DNA of 61,676 nt, filler included, from Sphacelaria rigidula (taxonomy: Eukaryota), in the NCBI GenBank assembly GCA_964200075.2. It is 10 parts of 10 records of this genome, joined end to end, with 100 filler letters (N's around TTAATTAATTAA, not from the genome) between each part and the next. Parts side by side here need not be neighbours in the genome. Positions count along the whole stretch, not along the records: positions 43,246 to 49,322 come from CAXNAA020022395.1; 9 more parts are not named here. The stretch is one strand, 5' to 3'. This document shows positions 150 to 56,127 of this stretch, one piece after another. The position numbers and the translations under genes were made by a program. Numbering within the stretch: position 1 is the first letter of the stretch; each line of letters opens with the position of its first letter. The notes under the pieces were generated by a model. It saw only the letters and a list, made by a program, of their open reading frames with translations, had not been told where the DNA came from and ran no database searches.

Positions 150-807
150 CCCGACACTGAAGAAAGCGCTTTCTTTACTCGTGTGGCCCATGCGTAAGAC
201 GGAAATTCCAATGTTATATTCGAACCGAATCTGGCGTTTGTATTCTTGAAATATATTTTCTGGATGACTCTCCCGACTTTTGCTGGTCTTCAATGGACTA
301 CCCAAGGACCTAATTCACCTCATGCGTTCGTCGCGCACCCCTAACTGAACCGCCAGCAACAGCAGTCATGACCCCCCAAGAATCGACCATTTACCAGTTT
401 ACTCGCTGTTTACCGAATTACTATACAACGACCAGACCCGGCGTGGTCTTCTCGAAATATAATTCCAAGGCTCTGTCCACAGATGACTCCCCGCACCGCG
501 ACACTCCGACGTGAGATTTGCCACACTTCCAACACTCCGAGCGAAGATTTCCCGCACACCCAAATCCAAGCGGCACCTCCGAATGTGGAAACACAACTTC
601 AGAGTTATTCCCGTTTCAGGCGCTCATGATATATTGCTGATTTCGAACCTCGATTCACTTGATACGTTGATCTTGTCGCGAGAACCAACCCACGCGAATA
701 TCACGCGTTATCAGTGGCCATCCACTCTCTGGCCGTCAAGCCTCTCCCTCTCTGTAGAGGGGAAAAGAGCGTCTCCTTTTGATCAGGGTACGGTGTTTGG
801 TGTTTGA
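150..807. repeat. Left arm of a long diverged inverted repeat (partner 2363-3070)
   Basis: ggggaaaagagcg...gatcagggtacggtgtttggtgtttga is the reverse complement of tcaaacaccaaacaccgtaccctgatc...gctcttttcccc at 2363; similarity followed by eye for about 650 bp; outer limit approximate. Confidence 0.85.
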
Positions 808-4420: not shown

Positions 4421-5391
4421 GCACTCAATCACCAAGTGCGAAGCACCGTGGTGTGTTCGGCGAGTCGCATGAAGAGTGAGCTGCATCCTGCGAAGATTGT
4501 TCGGCCCGAAGTCTGCTGATTATCTTGCATTTGGATGACAGCCTACAATGAATTGCTTTATTCTGTGGTATCGCCACTTCCAGAGACAGCCACGGCTTAT
4601 ACACTGCCTCATGCATACTTCACTATGTAAACACTACGGAGTACAGCCATCCCCACTGTGCGGAGTTGAGGTTCTCTCATGGCGTACAACGTCATCTAGC
4701 TCGATTATTTCACCATCATGGTTACCGGAAAAAAAACGCAAGCGCGCAAAAAAAAACGATAACCTGAACCTGGTTGCCTTCCTTACTACGCAGTGAGAGG
4801 CGTGTTTTATAGCGCCATCGCCAACCGACGCCAACCTCATCGGGAGTCCGCCCCTACAAAGCCGGGACGGAGCACGCGGGTTTTCACCGGACCAGGCTGG
4901 GGGGGGGGGGGGGGGCGGGGTTGGGAAAAAGACTGGGGGGGATTGGGGGCCGGGCAAGAAAATTTTTCCGTCCTGTTTTTGTCTTANNNNNNNNNNCCAC
5001 AGCCGCACCCGAGGCTCACGGGGGGCCCCCCCCCGGAAGGCGGGGAGAGGGCGGGGGGGTCCCTGGGCGAACAGGGGGGGGGGGGGGGGGGGGGGCTACG
5101 TATCGTAAAAAGACTTGTGATGATCATGGTCCGTGCAAGACAATTTTTCCTCTCTGCTTTTGTCATACGCAGTAGTAGTAGTACTTGTCTCGAAGAAAAC
5201 GATTTGGAAGTGAAACAACCACCAATGTTGGTGACGGCGGTGTTGGTGACGGCGGTGTCGAGCTATAGCACATCGGTCACAGCGGAGGTTTTTGTTGGAA
5301 ATGACGAAGATGAAGCAACATTTTACGCCGAAATTATACCCTCATGTTGACGAGTCGCGGCCTCTCGCATGCCTTCGTCCTTATTACTCGT

Positions 5392-6078: not shown

Positions 6079-6178
6079 NNNNNNNNNNNNNNNNNNNNNN
6101 NNNNNNNNNNNNNNNNNNNNNNTTAATTAATTAANNNNNNNNNNNNNNNNNNNNNNNNNNNNNNNNNNNNNNNNNNNN
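6079..6178. other. Artificial contig linker (N44-TTAATTAATTAA-N44); eight more at 12257, 18435, 24613, 30791, 36969, 43146, 49323, 55500
   Basis: Identical 100-nt block with a six-frame stop 12-mer; the segments it separates are 6078 bp (x6) then 6077 bp (x4). Confidence 0.97.
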
Positions 6179-10416: not shown

Positions 10417-13329
10417 TCGTGTCGAAATATTCAGTGAGCAGTGGGAAGTGCTATCGATATTTCAAGGACCAAGTGGACGCGGTCTCTCCCTGCAGCACCT
10501 TGCACATCACGAAATGATCCCGATATCTGCTGCGAACCATTGAAACGGCTTGAGTTTGGCAAAACATATTTCGGCTGAGCATGTCAACCCAGGCAGCCTC
10601 TTACCAATGGAAACGGCAGTGATGCACTTTTTCTGCAAAAAATTCATCTGGCCCGCTGCATAATTCAAGGAAGGGAAATGTTTATGCACAGGTACAAGTA
10701 TACCCGCACACTGTTGGGACAGTGCAAGGCGCACCTCTGAACGGCATGCAACCCGCGCTGAATACCCTCACCTAATGGATCGGCATGGTCGAAACCCTGC
10801 AGGCGACTGCAAGCTCAGCGATTGTGCCTCAACTTTTCTACCTACCGCCGTAACATGTAGACGCTGTGCGGGTAGCACATGCAGTTGGGAGGGATTCTAT
10901 CTGAAAGGGGCGAGCGACCAGTGCGGGGTATTTATAACGGTGGAGAAGGGCAAAGTTCCCACGCTTCCTCAACCGCGAGTGCAAGAACCCATCTTTCTGA
11001 CTCTTGGCCATTCGTGCATCGTATCCCGCGATCGGAAAGACCCGCTTCTGTCGCCTCCTTGGCCGCTCTGTCCAGATTCCGCAAACGTAAAGGGTCGATG
11101 CTGCTACCTTTTTGGGACGCACGTTTCATACTGCTCAAATACTCCACGCATGTCAATGGCGGTCTTCGTTGCCTGTCCAATCCCACCCATGACTTCACAT
11201 GGTACCCACTCGTTGACGACCGTTGACAGTTGCGATCGTGCGGTTTGTGCCGCTCGTAGCAAACACCTCACGGGTGGCCGCTGGCACACGTTACTGCACG
11301 TTATCCGCATTTTGGGACGTCCCTAGTCGATGTACGAGTTGAAAATCATGCGTGCCGCATGAATCGATTAGTAAAACAGATATCCCAACCTACAGTACTA
11401 GGTACCTGAACTGTTCATTTCGTAATTTCTTCGTAAGTCGCGATTCTCTCAGGGTCTTTCGCTCATCACCGCTCATCATATTGGGGATCCGAAGATACTT
11501 GTATCCGTCCGCTCCACATTCCGAGAAAACAAATTCTGTACGAGTATTCAATATCAGTTGACTTACAAGCTGACCGGTCATCGGGATTCCTGACACGTTT
11601 CAGCCGAGATTCCGACTGTTCGGTATTTCCATCGATCGAGCTTGTCCCGATCGCATTTGTGAAAAAGTGTACACGTTTGTTCTCTCGAAATTCTACCTAC
11701 TCGAGTAACACCCTCCTGATACACGGGGTACCTACTCGTATCGCCCGATAGAACCAACTAGGGCAATGGCCTATAAAAAGGTGTGAACCTTCTCGTATTT
11801 TCCCTTTGAGACCCTTGAGGCTGAAAAGGGTTCTACTGAACCAAAATTCCAACAGTGTCCTGTCCTGTCCATCCTGTCCTGTCCGTCCGGGCCTCATGAT
11901 GAAGCTCCGAACCACGGACTTTTTTTCCCGAATTGATTCGGAGCCGCGCTGCGCGAAAAAACCATCCCTTCGCTCTTCTGACATCAATCGAAACGTCCTC
12001 AACAAGTTTCAGCTTCAGTGGTGCTCACGGCGCTGTGTTTCGCTTCTGTCTCTTGGCGCACACGAGTACACCCCCTTTTCAACCCCTTTTGACCAGAGCG
12101 AGTCTTGATCGAACTTCTCAGACTTGACTGTCGTAACTTCCATACGTCGGACGAGCACGAGTGTCTCTCGTGGCACTCGCACTCGTTGGGCTGCTCATTG
12201 GCCGAAAAATGAATAGGGCGAGCACTCGAGTCATCGCTCGTTGTGCAAAAAACGAANNNNNNNNNNNNNNNNNNNNNNNNNNNNNNNNNNNNNNNNNNNN
12301 TTAATTAATTAANNNNNNNNNNNNNNNNNNNNNNNNNNNNNNNNNNNNNNNNNNNNATGAAATACCCTCTAGAGGATATTTTTATCCTCCCGAGGGTCAC
12401 TTTACCCTCGAGAGGATGAAAATCACGATAGAGGATTTTAAGGGGGTAGCCGAATGGCCGCGTGTGCAAGTTTACTCTTCAGAAATGAAGAGAACTCGGC
12501 GTGAGTGTATCTGCATAAGGGGGGATCTTCAGAAGCACCTGTTCGAGACCGAACGCGACCTCTAGAGCTTACGCGTGAGTGATGCCGCAATAGATAGCCC
12601 CCCCAAAACCACCCTGAAAGCTGTCACGAAGAGAATGTTCATACAACGCATGATAACTGGTCTCAAACTGCATGAAGCGCTTCATGTAGGCAACATTGGA
12701 GAAACCGATCCCAAGCGTGGCAGGTCCCAGCTGCCCGGTGTGCTCGGCGTTTGTCATCTTGGTTCACATGTAGGTTTTGCCTCCTCAAACCAGCCACTTT
12801 TCTGTGGGCGGCTATCGCGGCATCAGTCATCACGTACATTACATGAAAAACTCGGGGGTGTTTCCAAGCGCATGTGCGAGGGGGGTGCTCTAAATTCAGG
12901 GAGGGGTGCCTTCGTGGGCCTGCTGAAGTTACTTGGCGTTCCCTTCTTGAGAGTAGACAGGGAACGCCAAGTATACACGTATGTTTTCGTCGGGACGTGT
13001 TTGATCTGTAGACAGGGAAACGCATTTTTTATTCAACAATGAGATACAAGGCTACACGATGGGGTAACAATTGACTGAGGCAATACAGTTGAGTTGCATC
13101 AGATTATTTTTACTGTGAGAAGGGGACCACGAATAACTCATGTGGTGGCGCGATCTTCATTGGTGAACAGTGTCATTGGCGTCCATGGTTCAAGCCCGAT
13201 GGTCCAACTGCTCTATCTTCTCTGTCTACTTCTCTTTTCCTTTCTTTTTGACCAGGTTCTTTTTCCAAGCTTCCCTCTCGTTATCCTCGTCTGGCCCAAA
13301 TCCAATATTGTACGCCCTCTGCAGGTGAA

Positions 13330-25579: not shown

Positions 25580-28500
25580 GTGCCCGAGTCAACCTTAACA
25601 AATCTAGGCGCAAAAGAACGAATCTTGCGAAGAGACTCCCACGTACGTTCTTCACCACCGAACCCATCCCAGTCGATCAAAACTATGAAATCACCATTGC
25701 CACCCTCAGCGACGTGCACCAAAGCATTCATCCAACATTCACCTTGAGCACACGAATGCTGAAATACATCTTTTAGTTCCGCAGTAATGTGCAACTGCGA
25801 GTCAGCGTAGAAACACAAATGAGCGACATGGGCCGAGTGTACGGCGCCAGAAACAATGTTCTGCACCGAATACAGGTGGGTGTGATCGGCTCCGACCACT
25901 CGCCACGGACCTGTCCATGGGGACATCAACCTGGGCGTCACACCTTGCCTACGAATACGGGCACAAAAGACGAAATTTCCAACTGCAAACTTGGGCAACA
26001 CAGCCTGGCCCTGAGCAAGCTTGCGCTTGGTTTCGCGAGACATCGTGATAGCAGCTTGCACTTCGTTACGAAACCGCACTTGCTCGTCAACCGCGCCTCG
26101 AACCGTGTCACGCAACGTATCAGCATCCATGAAATCGACGTTCCACTCGCCGCCAGTGACAGGAGCCAACGCGGAAAACGCTGTACGCGGCTCTCGCCCA
26201 AAAATCACACGATATGGAGTGTTACGGTGGCGTGGATGAAAAAAAGTATTCAACGCCGACTGAGCGGCTGGCAAAACATCAACTCATTCAGACACCGGCC
26301 GTGTTTGTGTTAACAAAATGGACCGCAACGCACGAACAACCCCTTTCACCATGCCTTCTCAAGCATAATTCGACCAAGGGGTATACGCAACAGCAAATTG
26401 GTGTTGCACCTTGAGCGCGTCGCTCAGCTGCGCGATTAGTCGATTCTTGAAGAGCGTGGCGATATCACTAACCCACACACGCGACACCCCCGAAGTCTTA
26501 CACCAACGCATCAAGTGCTTAGCAGTAACCTCGGCGGTGCAAGCCTCGGTCGGCTTCAACCAAACGAAATTGGACAAATCATTCATGATGACCGAAACGT
26601 ACCGAAAACCATCCTCATCAGGCAAATCATTAGCACCTTCAGGTCCGCTACTTCCGAGGTACAGAAAATCAAAGTGAACAACTTCACCTGGCGCAGTACT
26701 GTTCACAGCATCGCCATGCGGACGAGGTACAATCGCACCAGCACGAGTGTCTGCACAATGCAAACACTGGCGAACGAACTCGCGGACGTGGGAATTCATG
26801 TGAGGCCACACATAGTATTCTTTGCAAATGAAACAGAGTCGGCGCCACACCACGGTGACCGGCCGACCGCTTGTGAGCGCACACCGTCAAGCGAGTTTGT
26901 AGAGCCTCATCATCCGACGGAATCCACCAAGCATCACTACTGCTAACACGCACGCGAAACAAACCGTCGTCAGCCAAGGCAGCTTAACCGAAAGTCGCAG
27001 GAAAAGAATGAACACCATCGCCGACTGTTTTGCGCTGCGCGGTACGAATGACATCTCACGAGGGCAGCGAATCATCGGCATCATACGGGCTGTACACGGC
27101 ACCAGAACGAACAGGCATGGTAGGAACCGTCACCCAGCGAGACAACAAATCTCCTCAACAATTGTGCCCTCCAGGAATGTGTTCAATGCCAAACCGATAT
27201 TGGCCGAGCACTCCTTTCCAATTTTCACGCCGTGGCGCCATGGCCTTCGTCACCGATGCGACACACTCTTCGGGATTGAAAATGTATTTCAGATCGTTAT
27301 GATCGGTGAAAATGCGAACACCACCCCAAAGAGAGTACTCTAGCCTTCGAAATGTATCGACTACCGCCAAACCTTCTTTGTCCACCGTCGCCCACCGCAA
27401 CTGTTAGCTCTTGAAGCTACCACTCAGAAAAGCCAACAGTTCGTGTGACATATTTTCAAGCGCAATCCCACCACTGAAGTCGGCGACAGGCACTCGGTAA
27501 AAAAAACTACCCCGGTGGAAGTCCGAAGCATCTGGAAACATCAGAACAACGCACCCTGGACGAGGATGATAGAGCGGCACCGCTTGCGCCACCAAATCTT
27601 GCGCAGCACGCCGTGCCCGCACACGATCCTCCGTCCAAGCGTTCTTCGGGATGATACGATTACGCGCCGCCCGCTTGGTCCGATGCGAAGCCCCTACCAT
27701 AAGCTGTTCCTAAAACACACGAAACGGCGCCACTACTTCCGCCATGCGCGGGAGCGAAGTTCGCAACCAATTCACCGCGTGCAGAAACTGCATCAGCTCA
27801 CTAGCGATTTGAGGACGTCGCATATTGCTCGAACCTTGGATGCGGACGGGATCATGCGAGACAGTAACCCCGGAGTACATCGAACCACACCAGACCACTT
27901 CGCGGGCAAAGAAGGTGCACTTGTGCGCAGCAGCGACGAGCAGACCAACACTCTCCAGGCGGCCAAGAATTTCGTCAAGCAAAGCTAACAATGATTCTTC
28001 GGTTTTAGCTCAATAGAAAACGTCATCCACCCACACTTGATAGTTTTGACCTCGCAAACCAGTCAGTCAGCACACCTTGGAAACATGCCGTGGCATTTAA
28101 CACGCCCTGTGGGACACGAGTAGGCGTAAACAAACCGTCAGGCGTGACGATCGTGAAGATCTCCTGAGCCTCTGGCGCCAGAGGCATCTCTCTGCCGATA
28201 CCCCTTGAGCAGGTCCAACTTGCCGAAGCATTGGACTCCCAGCAACTCCCGCATGTCTTCTTGGCTTGGCACCACCCCCGGAGACTGTTCCACTTGCGCG
28301 TTCACCGCCTGGTAGTCGCTGACCGAACGGAATGTGCCCCGCTTCGGCACCGCCATCGCCGGACTCGCCCACACAGCCTGAATGTTCCTCACCCACAAAC
28401 CGAAGGCCACCAAAGCTGCGGTGCATGAAGCAAGCCACCCAGTCTTCACCGGGTCGTGACGGCGAGGCTTGGCCTTCACAGCCTTCGCCTGTGGCTTGAG

Positions 28501-32708: not shown

Positions 32709-32814
32709 CACACCCTGTATATTGTCGATAGTTAGTTGCAATAGGCCTATACTGTATGCGGTACATGCTTCTTCTATTGCAACTAATTATTGACAATATA
32801 TCGTCCAAGGTGTG
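32709..32814. mobile_element. 106-bp mini copy of the CACACCCTGG TIR family
   Basis: cacaccctgtatattgtc ... gacaatatatcgtccaaggtgtg; flanks aaaagtat / aaaaaata(t), degenerate. Confidence 0.65.
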
Positions 32815-38011: not shown

Positions 38012-38178
38012 CACACCCTGGAGAAATATATATTTAGTCAACAGTTGCACTTGACGAAAAAAAAATCTACTGCGTGAAGTGCAGGCGTATTAGCAATAGT
38101 TGCAATAAGCCTATACATAAGGCAGTACAGTTTTTTTTTACCTACTGTAACTATTGACCATATATTGTCCAGGGCGTG
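38012..38178. mobile_element. 167-bp copy of the CACACCCTGG TIR family
   Basis: cacaccctggagaaatata ... tatattgtccagggcgtg; TSD aattggtc/aattggta (7/8). Confidence 0.8.
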
Positions 38179-46030: not shown

Positions 46031-47212
46031 AATAACCGAGAAATTGCCCCGCTTTGCACGCGACTATGGATAAATGCAAGAAACTGGGTTAACGCAGAAA
46101 CAGATGCACCCCTTTCTCTTTCTATCGGTTGTTGATTTTGTCCCTGATTATGTCCTTGGTCGGTGCTTCTGCGGTGCTCCCTGGCGTATGGTTGTACCTG
46201 CGCTACTGTACTGCGTCCTTTGAGTTCCATCACTTCTGTAGTCTCCTTCTTCTCTGTTCTCTCTTCCTTTCCCCATCTCTCTCTCCATGTGTGTTCTTTT
46301 CTCTCGGTGTTTGCAAGTAGCAGTTTGGTGCCTCACTACCGCGAGGTTTATGGATGAGAGCTTCATACCCGAAGTAGTGAGGTCGAAATAGAACTACAGG
46401 CTGGTTCACGTTCATCACCCAAAAAACACTCATCGGCAAAACCTCACGCCATTTTGAGGAGTTGGACCCTGAATTTTTGCACGAATGTTGTATGGGTAAT
46501 TACGCAACTTTCGAAGAACGAGGTTTTTCTACTTTTTTACTTTTTTCACCGTTTCGCGGGGGTCCCAGTTTTGGGGAGGAGATTTCGACCCAATCGGACG
46601 CACGTAAAACGGCAACAAAAAATAAAATAAAAAGCCTCGTCCATTCAATGTTGCGTAATGTCCCAAAGCACAGTTGTGCAAAATTTCAGAGTCTAACTCC
46701 TTGAAACGGCGTGAGGTTTTTGGCCTTTGTGCGATGAAGTTTGCCGTACCGCGGTNNNNNNNNNNAACGGCGTTTTTGGGCCTTCTTTGACGTGAACATG
46801 GAAATTCAAGCATCAGTTGAGCGAGTTTTACAACGAAAATTTGTGGAGCCCATCCTTGGGTTATGCGGGGAGGCAGATAGTTCGCGAAAAAATGAAAAAG
46901 CATATCGTAGTGCCGTTATTCTGGGGTCCCAGAATGGAGACTACTTCGAAAAACGCCTTCAATCCGTCAGACCCTCGAAAAACGGTGAAAAATCAAGAAG
47001 TACAAAACAACTCATCCGTAGAAAGTTGCGTGATGATATATAGTATATGTTTGCGAAGTTTCAGGATCTAACTCTTGATGACAGCGTGAAAGTTTGCGCG
47101 TTTGTGGAAGACGTGGGCTCAAAACGTGCAACTCCTAACTACTTGGTTTTAGTATAGAAACGTCTTTTGAGGTGAATTTGACGTCAAGGCAAGAAAAACT
47201 GTGTGAGGGTTT

Positions 47213-48890
47213 CACACCCTGGACAATACCATATGTAAAATATATTGCCAGCTCAATATATCGACGCGTCGGGTGGTCAAAATATATTGGGCGAGCAATA
47301 TGATGGCACGAGAGAGGGTCAACATATATTGTACCATCAGTATGTCGAGGCTCGCGACATGCAATATATATCGACCGAACAATATATTATCACGACACGC
47401 GCCACCTCAATATATTGGCCGAGTAATATGTTGGTGCGAGAAGGCACCAATATATGTTTGTCGTGTAATATGTTGGCTGCCACCCAAGGTCAATATATAT
47501 TGACGATTCAATATACTCGACACCCGAAGCGCCAATATATATTGCCGCCCCAATATGTCGTGCGCCAATGGGTCCAATGTATATTGGGCAGACAATATAC
47601 GAGGGAACCGACGGTCACAATTCATGTTGGTGTAGCAAAATATATTGATTATCGACATGTAGATTGGAAAGTGTATTGAAATTAGTATCGTGGGCAGTTC
47701 TTTGTTCGCGAGCGCCATTCAGAGATGTATTTTACATGCCGAAAACGCTCAATGTATTCCTCCGCAAGCGTGTTTAATGTATATTGGCCGCACAATAGCT
47801 ATCCGATGAGCGTGCGCAATATGTATTGGAAAAACAATTCCTCTGCATGGTTTGCGTTCAATATATATTATGGTAACAATATGCTACGCATCTCTTCGTC
47901 TCAATATATATTGTCAATATATATTGACACTTCAATAGATACACTGCCGGCATGCACAATATATAGTGAATATTTTCTTCCCGGAGCAAATGCATGTCCA
48001 ATATATAGTGTCATATATTACTTCATGATCATGACACGAGCAATATATGTTGTTGCTTCAATGTCTCCGAGGACTTCTCACTACAATATATATTGACAGG
48101 ACAATCTTCCAGCTGGCTCCAATACAAAGTATTGGTATCATATTGGAACATATTGTATTGTCCAGGGTATAAGCAACATAGCCCCGGTGACCACAGGGGT
48201 ACCAAAAGGCGCATACCGACCCGTGTTTTCTGTCATCGTGATGTTTGGCCAAGATATAGTATGAACTACATACTGGGAAGGGGATGCGCGGCACCGCAAC
48301 GGTGGCCAGATAGGTATCAGGAGGCATACATATATATATCGGGTCGCCTCTTCTGTCACCATATTTTCTGACCAGTATATATATATATATATACATATAT
48401 ATGTCAAACGCATTCGACAACTCTCCGTAGTAATGCACGCGAACTTCTGCGGCTCCCTTTGAAGCTTTCCCAATCTGCACGGGCTCCGGCATCCATCGCG
48501 TATGGATCTTTCTTAAAGCGTACACCATACTTATAATATCCAATATATATTGACCGGCCAATACATTGACACCCACGCAGACCCTATATATATTGACCGG
48601 TCAATATGTTCTCATCAATGCGAGCCTAATATATATTGGTCGTGCAATATGCTGTCGCCCACGCTGCCCCAATATATATTGATGGGACAATATGTGTTCG
48701 ACCCCACAGTACCAACATATATCGGGCGGGCAATCAATGTGTATGCAGTCCCGCGACATCAATATATATTGGGCGCGCAATACGTGAGCAGTCCAAGGGT
48801 ACCAATATATATTACGCCGGCAATATATTGCAAAATTCCAATATGATCGACTAATATATATTGAGAATATATTGTATTGTCCAGGGTGTG
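47213..48890. mobile_element. 1678-bp non-autonomous DNA transposon, perfect 17-bp TIR and 8-bp TSD
   Basis: cacaccctggacaatac (47213-47229) / gtattgtccagggtgtg (48874-48890); gagggttt at 47205-47212 and 48891-48898; no transposase ORF. Confidence 0.93.
47236..48863 (+). repeat. 42-43-bp periodic dual-repeat array with variable spacers (about 26 units in three blocks)
   Basis: Consensus CAATATATATTG-N6-CAATATRYYG-N14/15; unit starts 47236, 47278, 47320, 47362, 47406, 47448, 47491, 47533, 47575, 47618; 47775-48084; 48541-48803. Confidence 0.9.
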
Positions 48891-49422
48891 GAGGGTTTCG
48901 ATTTTCTCCACCAAACTTTGTACATGTGTTCCTTGGACTCTCCCAGGACGCACCATTTAATTTTTTTTCTTTCGGGATATGCTGTACCGCCTTCCGGGGA
49001 TGTTCATGCTGGGACCCCTGGAAGCCGGTAGAGAACGGAGAAACCACGATGCATTGTCAAGAATACAATTTTTCCATTTTGAGCATCAATACCTACGGAT
49101 TTGCCAGGTTTGAGGGCGATCTGAGCTTTTTTACGACATATATATATATAGGGGACACCGTCACGAGACTCCCTGGGTCTTTCGTGCGTATCATCAGTGG
49201 AAATTAGACGACGCCAACACCCGACATCACCGAAACATCACGGTTTCGGGAATAATTCGACCCCCGTAGTAACCGTTAAAAAGATATGATTTACTCGTTA
49301 GATTCCCGTGTCGATGACGGTTNNNNNNNNNNNNNNNNNNNNNNNNNNNNNNNNNNNNNNNNNNNNTTAATTAATTAANNNNNNNNNNNNNNNNNNNNNN
49401 NNNNNNNNNNNNNNNNNNNNNN

Positions 49423-53700: not shown

Positions 53701-56127
53701 CCGACTACCGTCGCAGAGACAGCAGTATAGCAGAGGTTGCACAGTAGTAGTCAAACCACCTACTTCTGCAGCAGACAGAAAGTCCAAAGACAAAAATGGT
53801 CTTTGGGGCTCTTCACTTCGGTCGAACAAAATCAAGGCAGCCTCTTTTGCAAGCAGAGTGCTAAGGAAATGAAGAAAAGCTGGGTAAGCTTGGTAAGCTT
53901 GGGAGAGTGATTGCAAGGGCGATAGAAACCACCGATTACAAACATGCTCACTCCTGAAAGAAGAATCAAACACTCTACACGTACGTAGGGTCTAATCGTA
54001 TCATTCAATTCAACTCCGCTACTGGTGACGCGATAGCCTCGTCAGATCTTCAGCTTGGATCAACTGCAAACTTGCACACAAGATATGTTTCAGCGTACGT
54101 GGCGTGAATGAATACTCTGCTCGAGTATCTTTCATTGACAAATCATGGCAGCACGCCTACTCCAGCATTATTATACTCGAAGCGTCATTAAAACAGGTAA
54201 GCTATAAATAAACACAACAGAGGTACTCTCCGTGAAACGGATGCTAATGAAAGGGTCTTCCGTGGTTCGTTGTTTCGTTGAAGCGTAATAGACTGTACCG
54301 CTATCTTGTGTTGCAACGACTTCATTCAAACACAATGAATATAGACTGCATCGTCTAGATTTTTGCAATATCTTCCCATGAATGAGACATGTTGCCACCA
54401 AAGGTAGTAGTGAACTCAGCACACTAAGTGTAGTAGTAAGAAATGCAGCAGACGAGAATAAACAACGTGTATCAACTGTTGTTTCATCCTCATTTCATAC
54501 TGTACTGTCAATCGTTTCGACAAACGTCAGTCCAAACTAATTATACCTGAAAACGTTCACCCGCATGCACACGTATGTGTGTGCACCTTTCGCATAGGCA
54601 TCAAATTTCATGAGCCCTGTAAAAACAAATTCCTTGACTCTTGAAGAAAGAACGAAAAATAATAATGTGCACCGCAGTTCTCCCGAACGTTCTGTGAACC
54701 GTACAGTTACATTTGACATCAGATGCCCTATACTCTGCCTTCCTGTGTGACTGTGTCCTAACCCTGTGTTTGACCTCGGCTGGTGCGCCCATGTATATAT
54801 ATATAAAAAGATTATATGATAATATATAGTATATATGTATATATGTACACATACCGAAAGGTGTAGACCGGCGTCAAGAATAGATGGGACGACAACACGT
54901 ACCCAGTGAAATTGCCGAAAAAAACATCGTTCCCACAAAATATCAACTCGCAAGTTGCTACTTGACACTAGAGTTGAACCACAGGGGTCACTGCATGCAC
55001 TTCTGTTGTATGCAGCACATATCCCCTGAAAATTGTATAGCGTATCATACATATGCCCTCAATAAAATCAAGGCGAAAAGAAATCATGCACAGTACATGT
55101 TATACGCAACACATGCGGTTTACTGTACTGTCCTATAATGCACGACAATCCTGTTGTATGCACAGGCATTTTTCACCTGTGCACCGATAATCAATCATGC
55201 TTAGCAGCATCTACGTAAAATAGCAAGCATAACAAAAGTAATATGCACACTTTACTGGTGTGTCTTCGCTGTGTTGCTTTTTCTGCCCCAACGCTTATGA
55301 GCGGGACTGTGGCAGCTGGTTTATACTCGACCTCAAAACATATGGGCGTAGTGCGCAATCAAAACTTCTGTACAAAGATTGATAAACGAACTCATGTAAG
55401 GAAGGCGTATCGCTAGAGTAGTCAGAGACCTCCGGGGGGAGACTGCCGTCCTGATTCCGAAGGAACTCCGAGCTGGCGATGACTTCCTCTTGTATATGTN
55501 NNNNNNNNNNNNNNNNNNNNNNNNNNNNNNNNNNNNNNNNNNNTTAATTAATTAANNNNNNNNNNNNNNNNNNNNNNNNNNNNNNNNNNNNNNNNNNNNG
55601 TGGGTGTGTGGGTGGGGGGGGGGGGGGGGGGTGGGGTGTGGGGGGGGGGGGGGGGGGGGGGGGGGATACTCATGGTCTTGCATGTCGTAGCCATAAGGCC
55701 AATGACCTCACATCCTTACAAAGCCGGGGCGGAGCACAAAGGGTTTTCGTCGGACCAGCCTCGGGGGGAAGGAGGGGGGGTGAGTTGTACAAGCGAAGCG
55801 CAATTTGATAGTTTGCCTTTGACTGATCCGGTACAGATCATTTGCTCGGGCCACAATCAACGAAACGCGGCACGGAAGGAGGCTAGGCTTCTGGTACTCT
55901 GCTGCGTGTGACTCCGGCGAGAAAGGCGATGCTGGCACCACGGGAAACTTTGGGTAATGTTGAGAACAGGTGAAACGGAAGAGAGCACGTGCTGTGCACC
56001 CGTTCTCACCCGAAATACATTCTATAAATAATACGGCACACTGATCCGCGGAAGAGCACAGCTGGGTGGAAGACGGGATGACACCCGCTCACAAGCGTTT
56101 TTTTGGTCGAAATGAAATATCCTTCAC

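Follow-up and report, generated by a model that had tools for sequence, protein, structure and literature searches.

The window analysed here, by which we mean the whole 61.7-kb stretch (61,676 nucleotides) of Sphacelaria rigidula DNA taken from assembly GCA_964200075.2, is eukaryotic-looking, gene-poor and of 48% G+C. At positions 47213-48890 it carries an element of 1,678 bp, bounded by perfect 17-bp terminal inverted repeats (TIRs) and flanked by a perfect 8-bp target-site duplication (TSD), and filled largely by tandem units in which two short conserved boxes alternate with two variable spacers. The initial annotation of this DNA described the element as a DNA transposon built from a phased array, preferred to see in that array a protein-binding lattice, and likened its architecture to CRISPR and TIGR arrays, with a guide-RNA array as a more speculative alternative. 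The transposon and, on circumstantial grounds, the lattice are upheld by our analysis; the CRISPR/TIGR-like framing and the guide array are not. The element and its TSD are made up as follows.

47205-47212, unstranded: left copy of the TSD, GAGGGTTT, read directly
47213-47229, plus strand: left TIR, CACACCCTGGACAATAC, no mismatches; its inner part, GACAATA, holds a box half-site
47236-47659, plus strand: array A, ten units, 42-44 bp long and phased from the TIR onwards, each composed of a 12-bp palindrome, N6, a CAATAT half-site and a 14-16-nt spacer
47660-47774, plus strand: degenerate stretch between arrays A and B, with no recognisable boxes
47775-48126, plus strand: array B, 8 full units and a 13-bp partial unit (47902-47914)
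48127-48171, minus strand: internal copy of the right end, with the TIR-like TATACCCTGGACAATAC (reverse complement) at 48155-48171, two mismatches from the TIR
48172-48540, unstranded: non-array filler, 369 bp, unit-free and without protein family matches
48541-48845, plus strand: array C, 7 units of 43-47 bp, of the same polarity as A and B
48846-48873, plus strand: terminal box-rich stretch beside the right TIR, with TAATATATATTG at 48852-48863
48874-48890, minus strand: right TIR, CACACCCTGGACAATAC, no mismatches
48891-48898, unstranded: right copy of the TSD, GAGGGTTT, read directly

The terminal inverted repeat can be followed to 22 nt at 95% and then stops. The three blocks hold 25 full units and one 13-bp partial unit, close to the 26 or so reported in the initial annotation, and the period of 42-43 bp given there describes 23 of the 25 units (42 bp, n=12; 43 bp, n=11), the others being single units of 44 and 47 bp; the mean is about 42.7 bp, and autocorrelation peaks at lags of 43, 42, 86 and 84. 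Two units of array B, at 47957 and 47999, have lost the short box. The degenerate inner right terminus at 48155-48171, which is preceded by a homologous right-end stretch, had been missed, as had the filler at 48172-48540. Within the filler lies a (TA)13.5 microsatellite (48376-48402), at which public contigs seem to be cut.

The longer box is a 12-mer, CAATATATATTG, which occurs 22 times in the window at no more than one mismatch (eight of these copies are perfect), always within 47278-48863; 0.13 occurrences are expected from shuffles, and none of 100 shuffles reached 22. Its geometry is that of a palindrome, CAATAT|ATATTG, with a CAATAT half-site exactly 18 bp downstream of the palindrome start. 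The grammar 12-mer-N6-Y-A-R-T is found 21 times in the forward and never in the reversed orientation, so that the single polarity noted at the outset holds for all blocks, and the idea that the last right-end unit is a mirror image of the first was dropped on the same count. The N6 offset is held in 21 of the 25 units.

Conservation is very uneven along the unit. Across the 25 units, mean pairwise identity is 0.84 for the 12-mer (composition-preserving null 0.34) and 0.72 for columns 19-24, the CAATAT half-site (null 0.35), as against 0.285 for the 6-nt spacer (null 0.255) and 0.274 for the 14-nt spacer (null 0.259), most spacer columns having a G+C fraction of about 0.45-0.75. This bears out the claim that the array is not an evenly diverging minisatellite. 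The second box had been described as a looser 10-mer, CAATATRYYG; CAATAT and, more weakly, the T at column 26 are conserved in it, and the remaining columns are not. The excess of spacer identity over the null is small (z of 2-5), and a few pairs of units agree at 14-15 of the 24 non-box columns (best 15; 95th percentile of the null 14), both of which we take as slight remnants of shared ancestry. Owing to this degree of spacer divergence, TRF detects just 3.6 units, at 72%. The array thus reads as an old 42-bp tandem duplication in which the spacers have come close to substitution saturation, with the boxes, the N6 offset and the unit length retained; that unit length and offset persist beside saturated spacers suggests, from general indel-to-substitution ratios, that indels have been purged.

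The likely origin of the boxes can be seen in the TIR itself, which reads CACACCCTGGA-CAATA-C. Both boxes are copies of its inner half (GACAATAT), the palindrome being the half-site together with its mirror image. The same terminus is present twice more in the window, in two MITEs (miniature inverted-repeat transposable elements) of one family.

38012-38178, unstranded: MITE of 167 bp with the same terminus (CACACCCTGGAG... / CACGCCCTGGACAATATAT, the latter as reverse complement) and no array
32709-32814, unstranded: decayed MITE of 106 bp, right end CACACCTTGGACGATAT (reverse complement), no array

The two have an internal segment in common, and their terminus continues as ...GGACAATATAT. The first is flanked by AATTGGTC and AATTGGTA, the 8-bp flanks matching at seven of eight positions. 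Both were probably moved by the same transposase as the 1,678-bp element.

Evidence for mobility came from public sequence data. Contigs of four public runs, X1, X3, X6 and X10 included, were mapped to 46766-49322 at a likeness of at least 80%; the runs that carry the stretch are labelled organism A, 'algae metagenome' and organism B, X10 being organism B. Contig depths were not used as copy numbers, and the X6 contigs on the element carry no information on expression. On this 2.56-kb stretch, flanks included, lie 18,075 contigs from X1 and 17,950 from X3: the element and the DNA around it are both very repetitive. Twenty-nine contigs (11 in X1, 15 in X3, 3 in X6) join 47204 directly to 48891, skipping 1686 bases, that is, 1678 plus 8, with nine letters that fit either side and a shorter side of 62-67 letters. 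We read these as paralogous copies of the host repeat that lack the insertion. Such joints fix the boundaries of the element and its TSD independently of the initial annotation, which had called both TIRs and TSD perfect from the sequence alone.

A further 107 contigs in X1 and 110 in X3 leave the element at 48890, and their flanks agree with a consensus at just 0.40-0.41 or so. The element thus belongs to a high-copy mobile family with more than 100 insertion sites, and the description of it as a cut-and-paste transposon copy stands, on the TSD, the host-repeat copies without the element and the many different flanks. The window copy itself lies within a second kind of high-copy repeat, in a eukaryotic genome of alga type. 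The insertion-site DNA (46766-47212 and 48891-49322) is a very high-copy repeat in its own right, and many public contigs of it have no insertion; in the window there is no second copy of this host repeat, except that 46436-46564 and 46970-47097 are weakly similar (70%) in inverted orientation.

Spacer order and spacer sequence are fixed across the copies of the family and in a second organism. At array positions nearly all contigs agree on one letter that differs from the window copy (at 47323, for example, C>T with 63,890 of 68,838 depth in 86 contigs), and contigs of 200-390 nt are colinear across several units. For organism B, five contigs from X10 tile 47212-48874, except for 48235-48266 and 48569-48668, at about 89-93% identity. 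Since boxes account for only some 43% of the unit, identity at this level would be impossible with unrelated spacers. Comparison of spacer order between copies had been proposed in advance as the test of guide function, and the identical order leaves, of the two functions then envisaged, only that of binding sites. The composite form is the structure of the family and not a local accident, for contigs from X1, X3 and X10 continue past the inner terminus and on into the filler. Copies vary in unit number, as seen in joints that skip 42, 47, 132 and 253 bp.

The differences between the window copy and its family have a direction. Our tally of consensus differences covers the 40 rows listed (557 further rows fall outside it), of which 28 lie in the element, at positions where nearly all family contigs read another letter than the window copy. 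Of these 28, 19 are in the arrays and eight of those in box columns, and in all eight the family letter restores the box consensus. The source element therefore had cleaner boxes than the window copy, as would be predicted if selection acts at the level of transposition.

A scan of metagenome contigs with the 16-nt terminus returned 111 loci, nearly all of them chance matches, as expected for a 16-mer. Two, L036 and L001, are true relatives, and only these two have period-42 arrays among 199 loci examined (the 111 terminus loci, 6 viral loci and 82 prokaryotic motif matches). Both have the 16-nt terminus, arrays in phase from it and a 42-bp autocorrelation peak; the aligned terminus of the window element, both MITEs, L036 and L001 is YAYRCCCTGGAYAATA. 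In L036 the terminus is followed by 42-bp arrays, one of 10.1 copies at 86%, with boxes CAATTG-N6-CAATTC and an 18/24 sub-spacing of CAAT visible in the autocorrelation; in contrast to the window element, it has one or two units (1298-1351) that run opposite to those of its first array. A second L036 array (1505-1980) has periods of 42, 85 and 170. In L001 the terminus leads into a 42-bp array with the boxes GATAGGYATCGATAG and CTATTGG, and its inner TATACCCTGGATAATAC is the same terminus variant as the inner copy of the window element. Three families with unrelated unit sequences thus keep the terminus, the 42-bp period and a grammar of one long palindromic box and one short box.

The second terminus variant, TATACCCTGGA(C/T)AATAC, is internal in both the window element (48155-48171) and L001 (about 190-209, minus strand), where it directly follows a relic exon; the homologous protein P0004 ends in the translation of second-terminus sequence, so that this junction recurs in other contigs. 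Two other candidate relatives, L092 and L017, were rejected as unrelated. In L002, L008, L017, L054 and L099, three of which come from one metagenome, the 16-nt terminus lies inside unrelated 38/44-bp tandem repeats (units like GGTGGCAGCAACACACCCTG...); the CAAT-box architecture is absent, and we treated these loci as chance or as a different repeat. The viral contigs (6 loci) and prokaryote genomes (82 loci) held single chance matches to 12-mer-N6-CAATAT and no arrays.

The element probably belongs to the hAT superfamily. Its 8-bp TSD and short 17-bp TIR match the expectation for hAT elements (TIRs of about 10-25 bp), and a further hAT-type feature is the repetition of a short TIR-related motif in subterminal position, although superfamilies other than hAT can also give an 8-bp TSD. 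A link to a protein comes through L001, which carries between its arrays an exon-like relic open reading frame (ORF) that has three close relatives at 71-82% identity. The L001 exon itself has no match in Pfam. Searched against 1.84 billion representatives, a profile built from the four exon sequences matches 40 proteins with E≤0.001, mostly fragments of about 100 aa, as expected of transposon relics. A hAT transposase is expected to combine a BED finger, an RNase-H-like DDE core and a C-terminal dimerisation domain. Nine of the 40 were scanned against Pfam, and one, P0040 (946 aa), matches the last of these (Dimer_Tnp_hAT) at 29.5 bits, above the cut-off of 21.4, the other eight giving nothing relevant. 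P0040, annotated in one source as a Mesostigma viride gene model, has an E value of 9e-5 in the library-wide profile search, matches the Hermes transposase in the PDB (E 2e-5) and is 42% identical to the L001 exon over 59 aa by BLASTP (pairwise E 8e-11). A homolog search from P0040 returned P0040 itself only. Protein Atlas places P0014 among BED and ZBED1-like clusters, which we regard as leads only.

Taken together, these data lead us to favour, with some reservation, the reading of the element as a decayed copy of a high-copy non-autonomous cut-and-paste transposon, likely of the hAT type, whose subterminal putative transposase-binding sites have grown into a lattice. In this model the body of the element would go back to an ancient 42-bp duplication, in tandem, of the region next to the TIR, and the cognate transposase would bind the boxes through its sequence-specific N-terminal DNA-binding domain, which in hAT elements is a BED-type finger, the palindrome taking two domains and the half-site a third. 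With a spacing of 42-43 bp, each site would face approximately the same side of the helix as the one before it, which would allow cooperative loading of a multimeric transposase, and an element of about 25 units would capture the transposase of autonomous relatives very efficiently, which would fit its abundance. The array would then represent hAT subterminal repeats in a form of unusual length and regularity. Binding is here inferred from sequence; the support for a phased protein-binding lattice is circumstantial, and consists of boxes that copy the inner TIR, two other families that keep 42 bp, and a family consensus that restores the boxes.

Several observations weigh against this reading. 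The period had been equated with four helical turns, which is approximately so, and at a mean of about 42.7 bp the helical register would drift by some 20 degrees per unit. Unit number varies between copies, a property of any minisatellite, and whole units of the main L036 array agree at 86%, like those of a young minisatellite of the ordinary kind. The two MITEs have the same terminus and no array; provided that one enzyme mobilises all of these elements, it can do so without the lattice. The link to hAT appears indirect, passing through the relative L001 and a similarity of 59 aa, and the zf-BED match of P0040 is far below threshold (E 0.4). The hAT terminal pentanucleotide consensus is YARNG, which is not absolute; the termini of the element (CACAC, and TATAC in the inner copies) do not fit it. 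No transposase gene was found in the window by Pfam among 149 ORFs of at least 100 aa, nor any hAT relic by tblastn with 42 exon-family proteins (best E 0.002); no autonomous partner was found in the 61.7-kb window, and a search for longer proteins from P0014 gave none.

It is unlikely, though it is the strongest of the competing explanations, that the array is a functionless internal 42-bp minisatellite produced by slippage, its boxes kept non-selectively by slower mutation of AT-rich sequence than of GC- and CpG-rich spacers or by biased conversion. Many DNA transposons contain tandem repeats internally, an example being the 220-bp repeats described for Tetris (PMC4079207), and the units of the window element do lie head to tail within the 10-100 bp of a minisatellite, though their divergence is very uneven along the unit; the variable unit number, the faint residual spacer similarity, the homogeneous array of L036 and the array-less MITEs are all in keeping with such an origin. 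However, identities of 0.84 in the boxes and 0.27 in the spacers need at least a ten-fold difference in rate, yet the spacers are still GC-rich, and such an origin is hard to reconcile with a unit length and N6 offset kept despite saturation, with a family that restores the box consensus at eight of eight box-column differences in the rows listed, and with three families of unrelated units that have the same 42-bp period and the same palindrome/half-site grammar at the same terminus.

We consider it distinctly improbable that the lattice serves a host factor or chromatin, its AT-rich palindromes recruiting a host protein or positioning nucleosomes, for instance to evade or attract silencing or to seed satellite DNA. 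That boxes copy the inner TIR and differ between families sharing the TIR tip is the pattern to be expected of element-specific recognition rather than of a single host factor, and it argues against this possibility even though four units (168-172 bp) are about one nucleosome repeat, L036 has periods of 85 and 170, AT-rich boxes alternate periodically with GC-rich spacers, and a host factor was also allowed for in the initial annotation.

Least credible of all is an array of guide or small RNAs of about 42 nt, with two spacers per unit guiding a protein: against a superficial likeness to TIGR arrays, whose units likewise combine two spacers with two short repeats that alternate (PMC12045711), stand the same spacers in the same order in family copies and organism B, which leave room neither for acquisition nor for copy-specific targets, the location of the array inside a TIR element present at more than 100 sites, the lack of matches for any of 25 spacers elsewhere in the 61.7-kb window, to which that search was confined, the absence of a Nop or Cas-like gene among the 149 window ORFs by Pfam (in line with what had first been noted), and the absence of an Rfam family at threshold, the best, a miRNA family, scoring 24 bits against a gathering score of 60. 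Transcripts of the array would be self-complementary (folding z of -3.8 and -5.6), but we rejected these scores as evidence because repeated palindromes pair by construction.

Among known elements the closest comparison is with the hAT transposon Hermes, for which one study (PMC10368747) describes 17-bp TIRs, an 8-bp TSD and end requirements that extend far past the TIR, with 17 and 14 short BED-binding subterminal repeats in the two ends, one of them inside the TIR. According to that account, repeats are bound by several protomers of the octamer, two BED domains cooperate in binding a quasi-palindromic pair, and the arrangement of repeats is asymmetric between the ends in a way that matters for activity; Ac/Ds, Tol2 and Tag1 are cited there as further hAT elements with subterminal repeats. 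The window element resembles Hermes as so described in the sizes of TIR and TSD, in the many short putative sites in its ends with one in the TIR, and in palindromic pairing. The Hermes sites, however, are given as 4-5 bp long, irregular and within about 450 bp, whereas in the window element a palindrome of 12 bp and a half-site of 6 bp recur in a strict register of 42-43 bp. Also unlike Hermes, its units fill about 1.1 kb of 1.68 kb with a single polarity, and the register is kept in three families.

Galileo, of the P superfamily, is reported to have multiple THAP sites in tandem repeats near its ends, and higher-order multimers with specificity arising from site multiplicity have been proposed for it (PMC3688188). 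The repeats of Galileo and Foldback-like elements lie in long mirror-symmetric TIRs; the window element has a 17-bp TIR, and all 21 scored units run in one direction. We rejected a Foldback/Galileo-like element on the absence of mirrored long TIRs, the count of 21 forward and 0 reversed units and the end of the inverted repeat after 22 nt, and the 8-bp TSD and the hAT-related relic in L001 suggest that the superfamily is probably a different one from Galileo's.

With Tetris, in the terms of its abstract (PMC4079207), the window element has in common a non-autonomous nature, modular rearranged forms, internal tandem repeats and TIR tips common to a MITE family probably moved by the same enzyme. 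Tetris has units of about 220 bp, which were investigated for the satellite DNA that they give rise to, and that abstract describes neither a constraint on boxes relative to spacers nor a helical register.

The likeness to the TIGR-Tas systems of prokaryotes and phages, as these are portrayed in PMC12045711, is a loose one and extends to two alternating short repeats, two spacers and a near-fixed unit length. TIGR repeats are described there as 8-12 nt long, starting with UG and ending with CCA, with processed units of 36 nt; the window array has repeats of 12 and 6 nt without UG...CCA repeat ends, unequal spacers of 6 and 14-15 nt and a unit of 42-43 nt, no Tas/Nop protein, spacers fixed among more than 100 copies, and a eukaryotic transposon for a body. 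CRISPR arrays, with repeats of about 25-36 nt and spacers of similar size according to the same source, were rejected on the repeat and spacer lengths, on the lack of cas genes among the 149 ORFs and on the fixed spacers.

Subterminal binding sites are already known in transposons, and so are internal tandem repeats. We found no description in the open-access literature of a strictly phased 42-bp lattice of conserved boxes and free spacers that is kept across families. If the boxes are transposase sites, the array-less MITEs, the 25-unit element, the copies that have lost units and the sister families with the same period and other boxes would form a natural series on how multimeric hAT transposases read long ends, with a bearing on why spacing matters and on how non-autonomous elements prevail in competing for the enzyme. 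Should the array be no more than a minisatellite, it is a matter of ordinary repeat annotation. Pipelines that search for arrays should allow for a two-repeat/two-spacer geometry arising in a eukaryotic transposon with no link to RNA guides.

More tentatively, and with rather less confidence than we place in the reading favoured above, the three families may represent an algal hAT-type clade whose ends have become kilobase-long, 42-bp-phased lattices of bipartite putative transposase-binding boxes, in which the register is conserved and the box sequence co-evolves with the DNA-binding domain of each family. Were such a clade real, it would imply a filament-like or highly cooperative assembly of transposase along the DNA, a way of recognising ends that is not known from eukaryotic cut-and-paste elements, and non-autonomous 'sponge' elements that out-compete their autonomous source for transposase.

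Elsewhere in the window, pairs of 44-N blocks recur about every 6,178 bases (for example, at 6079-6178, 12257-12356 and 55500-55599) and look masked rather than biological, with further short N runs at 4987, 41936 and 46756; one of these masked stretches set the start of the mapped region at 46766. A 175-aa ORF on the minus strand at 26362-26886, the single one of the 149 ORFs to have a Pfam match, matches Integrase_H2C2 at 26.6 bits, above the cut-off, and rve at 30.1 bits, just below it, and is the decayed integrase of a long terminal repeat retrotransposon.

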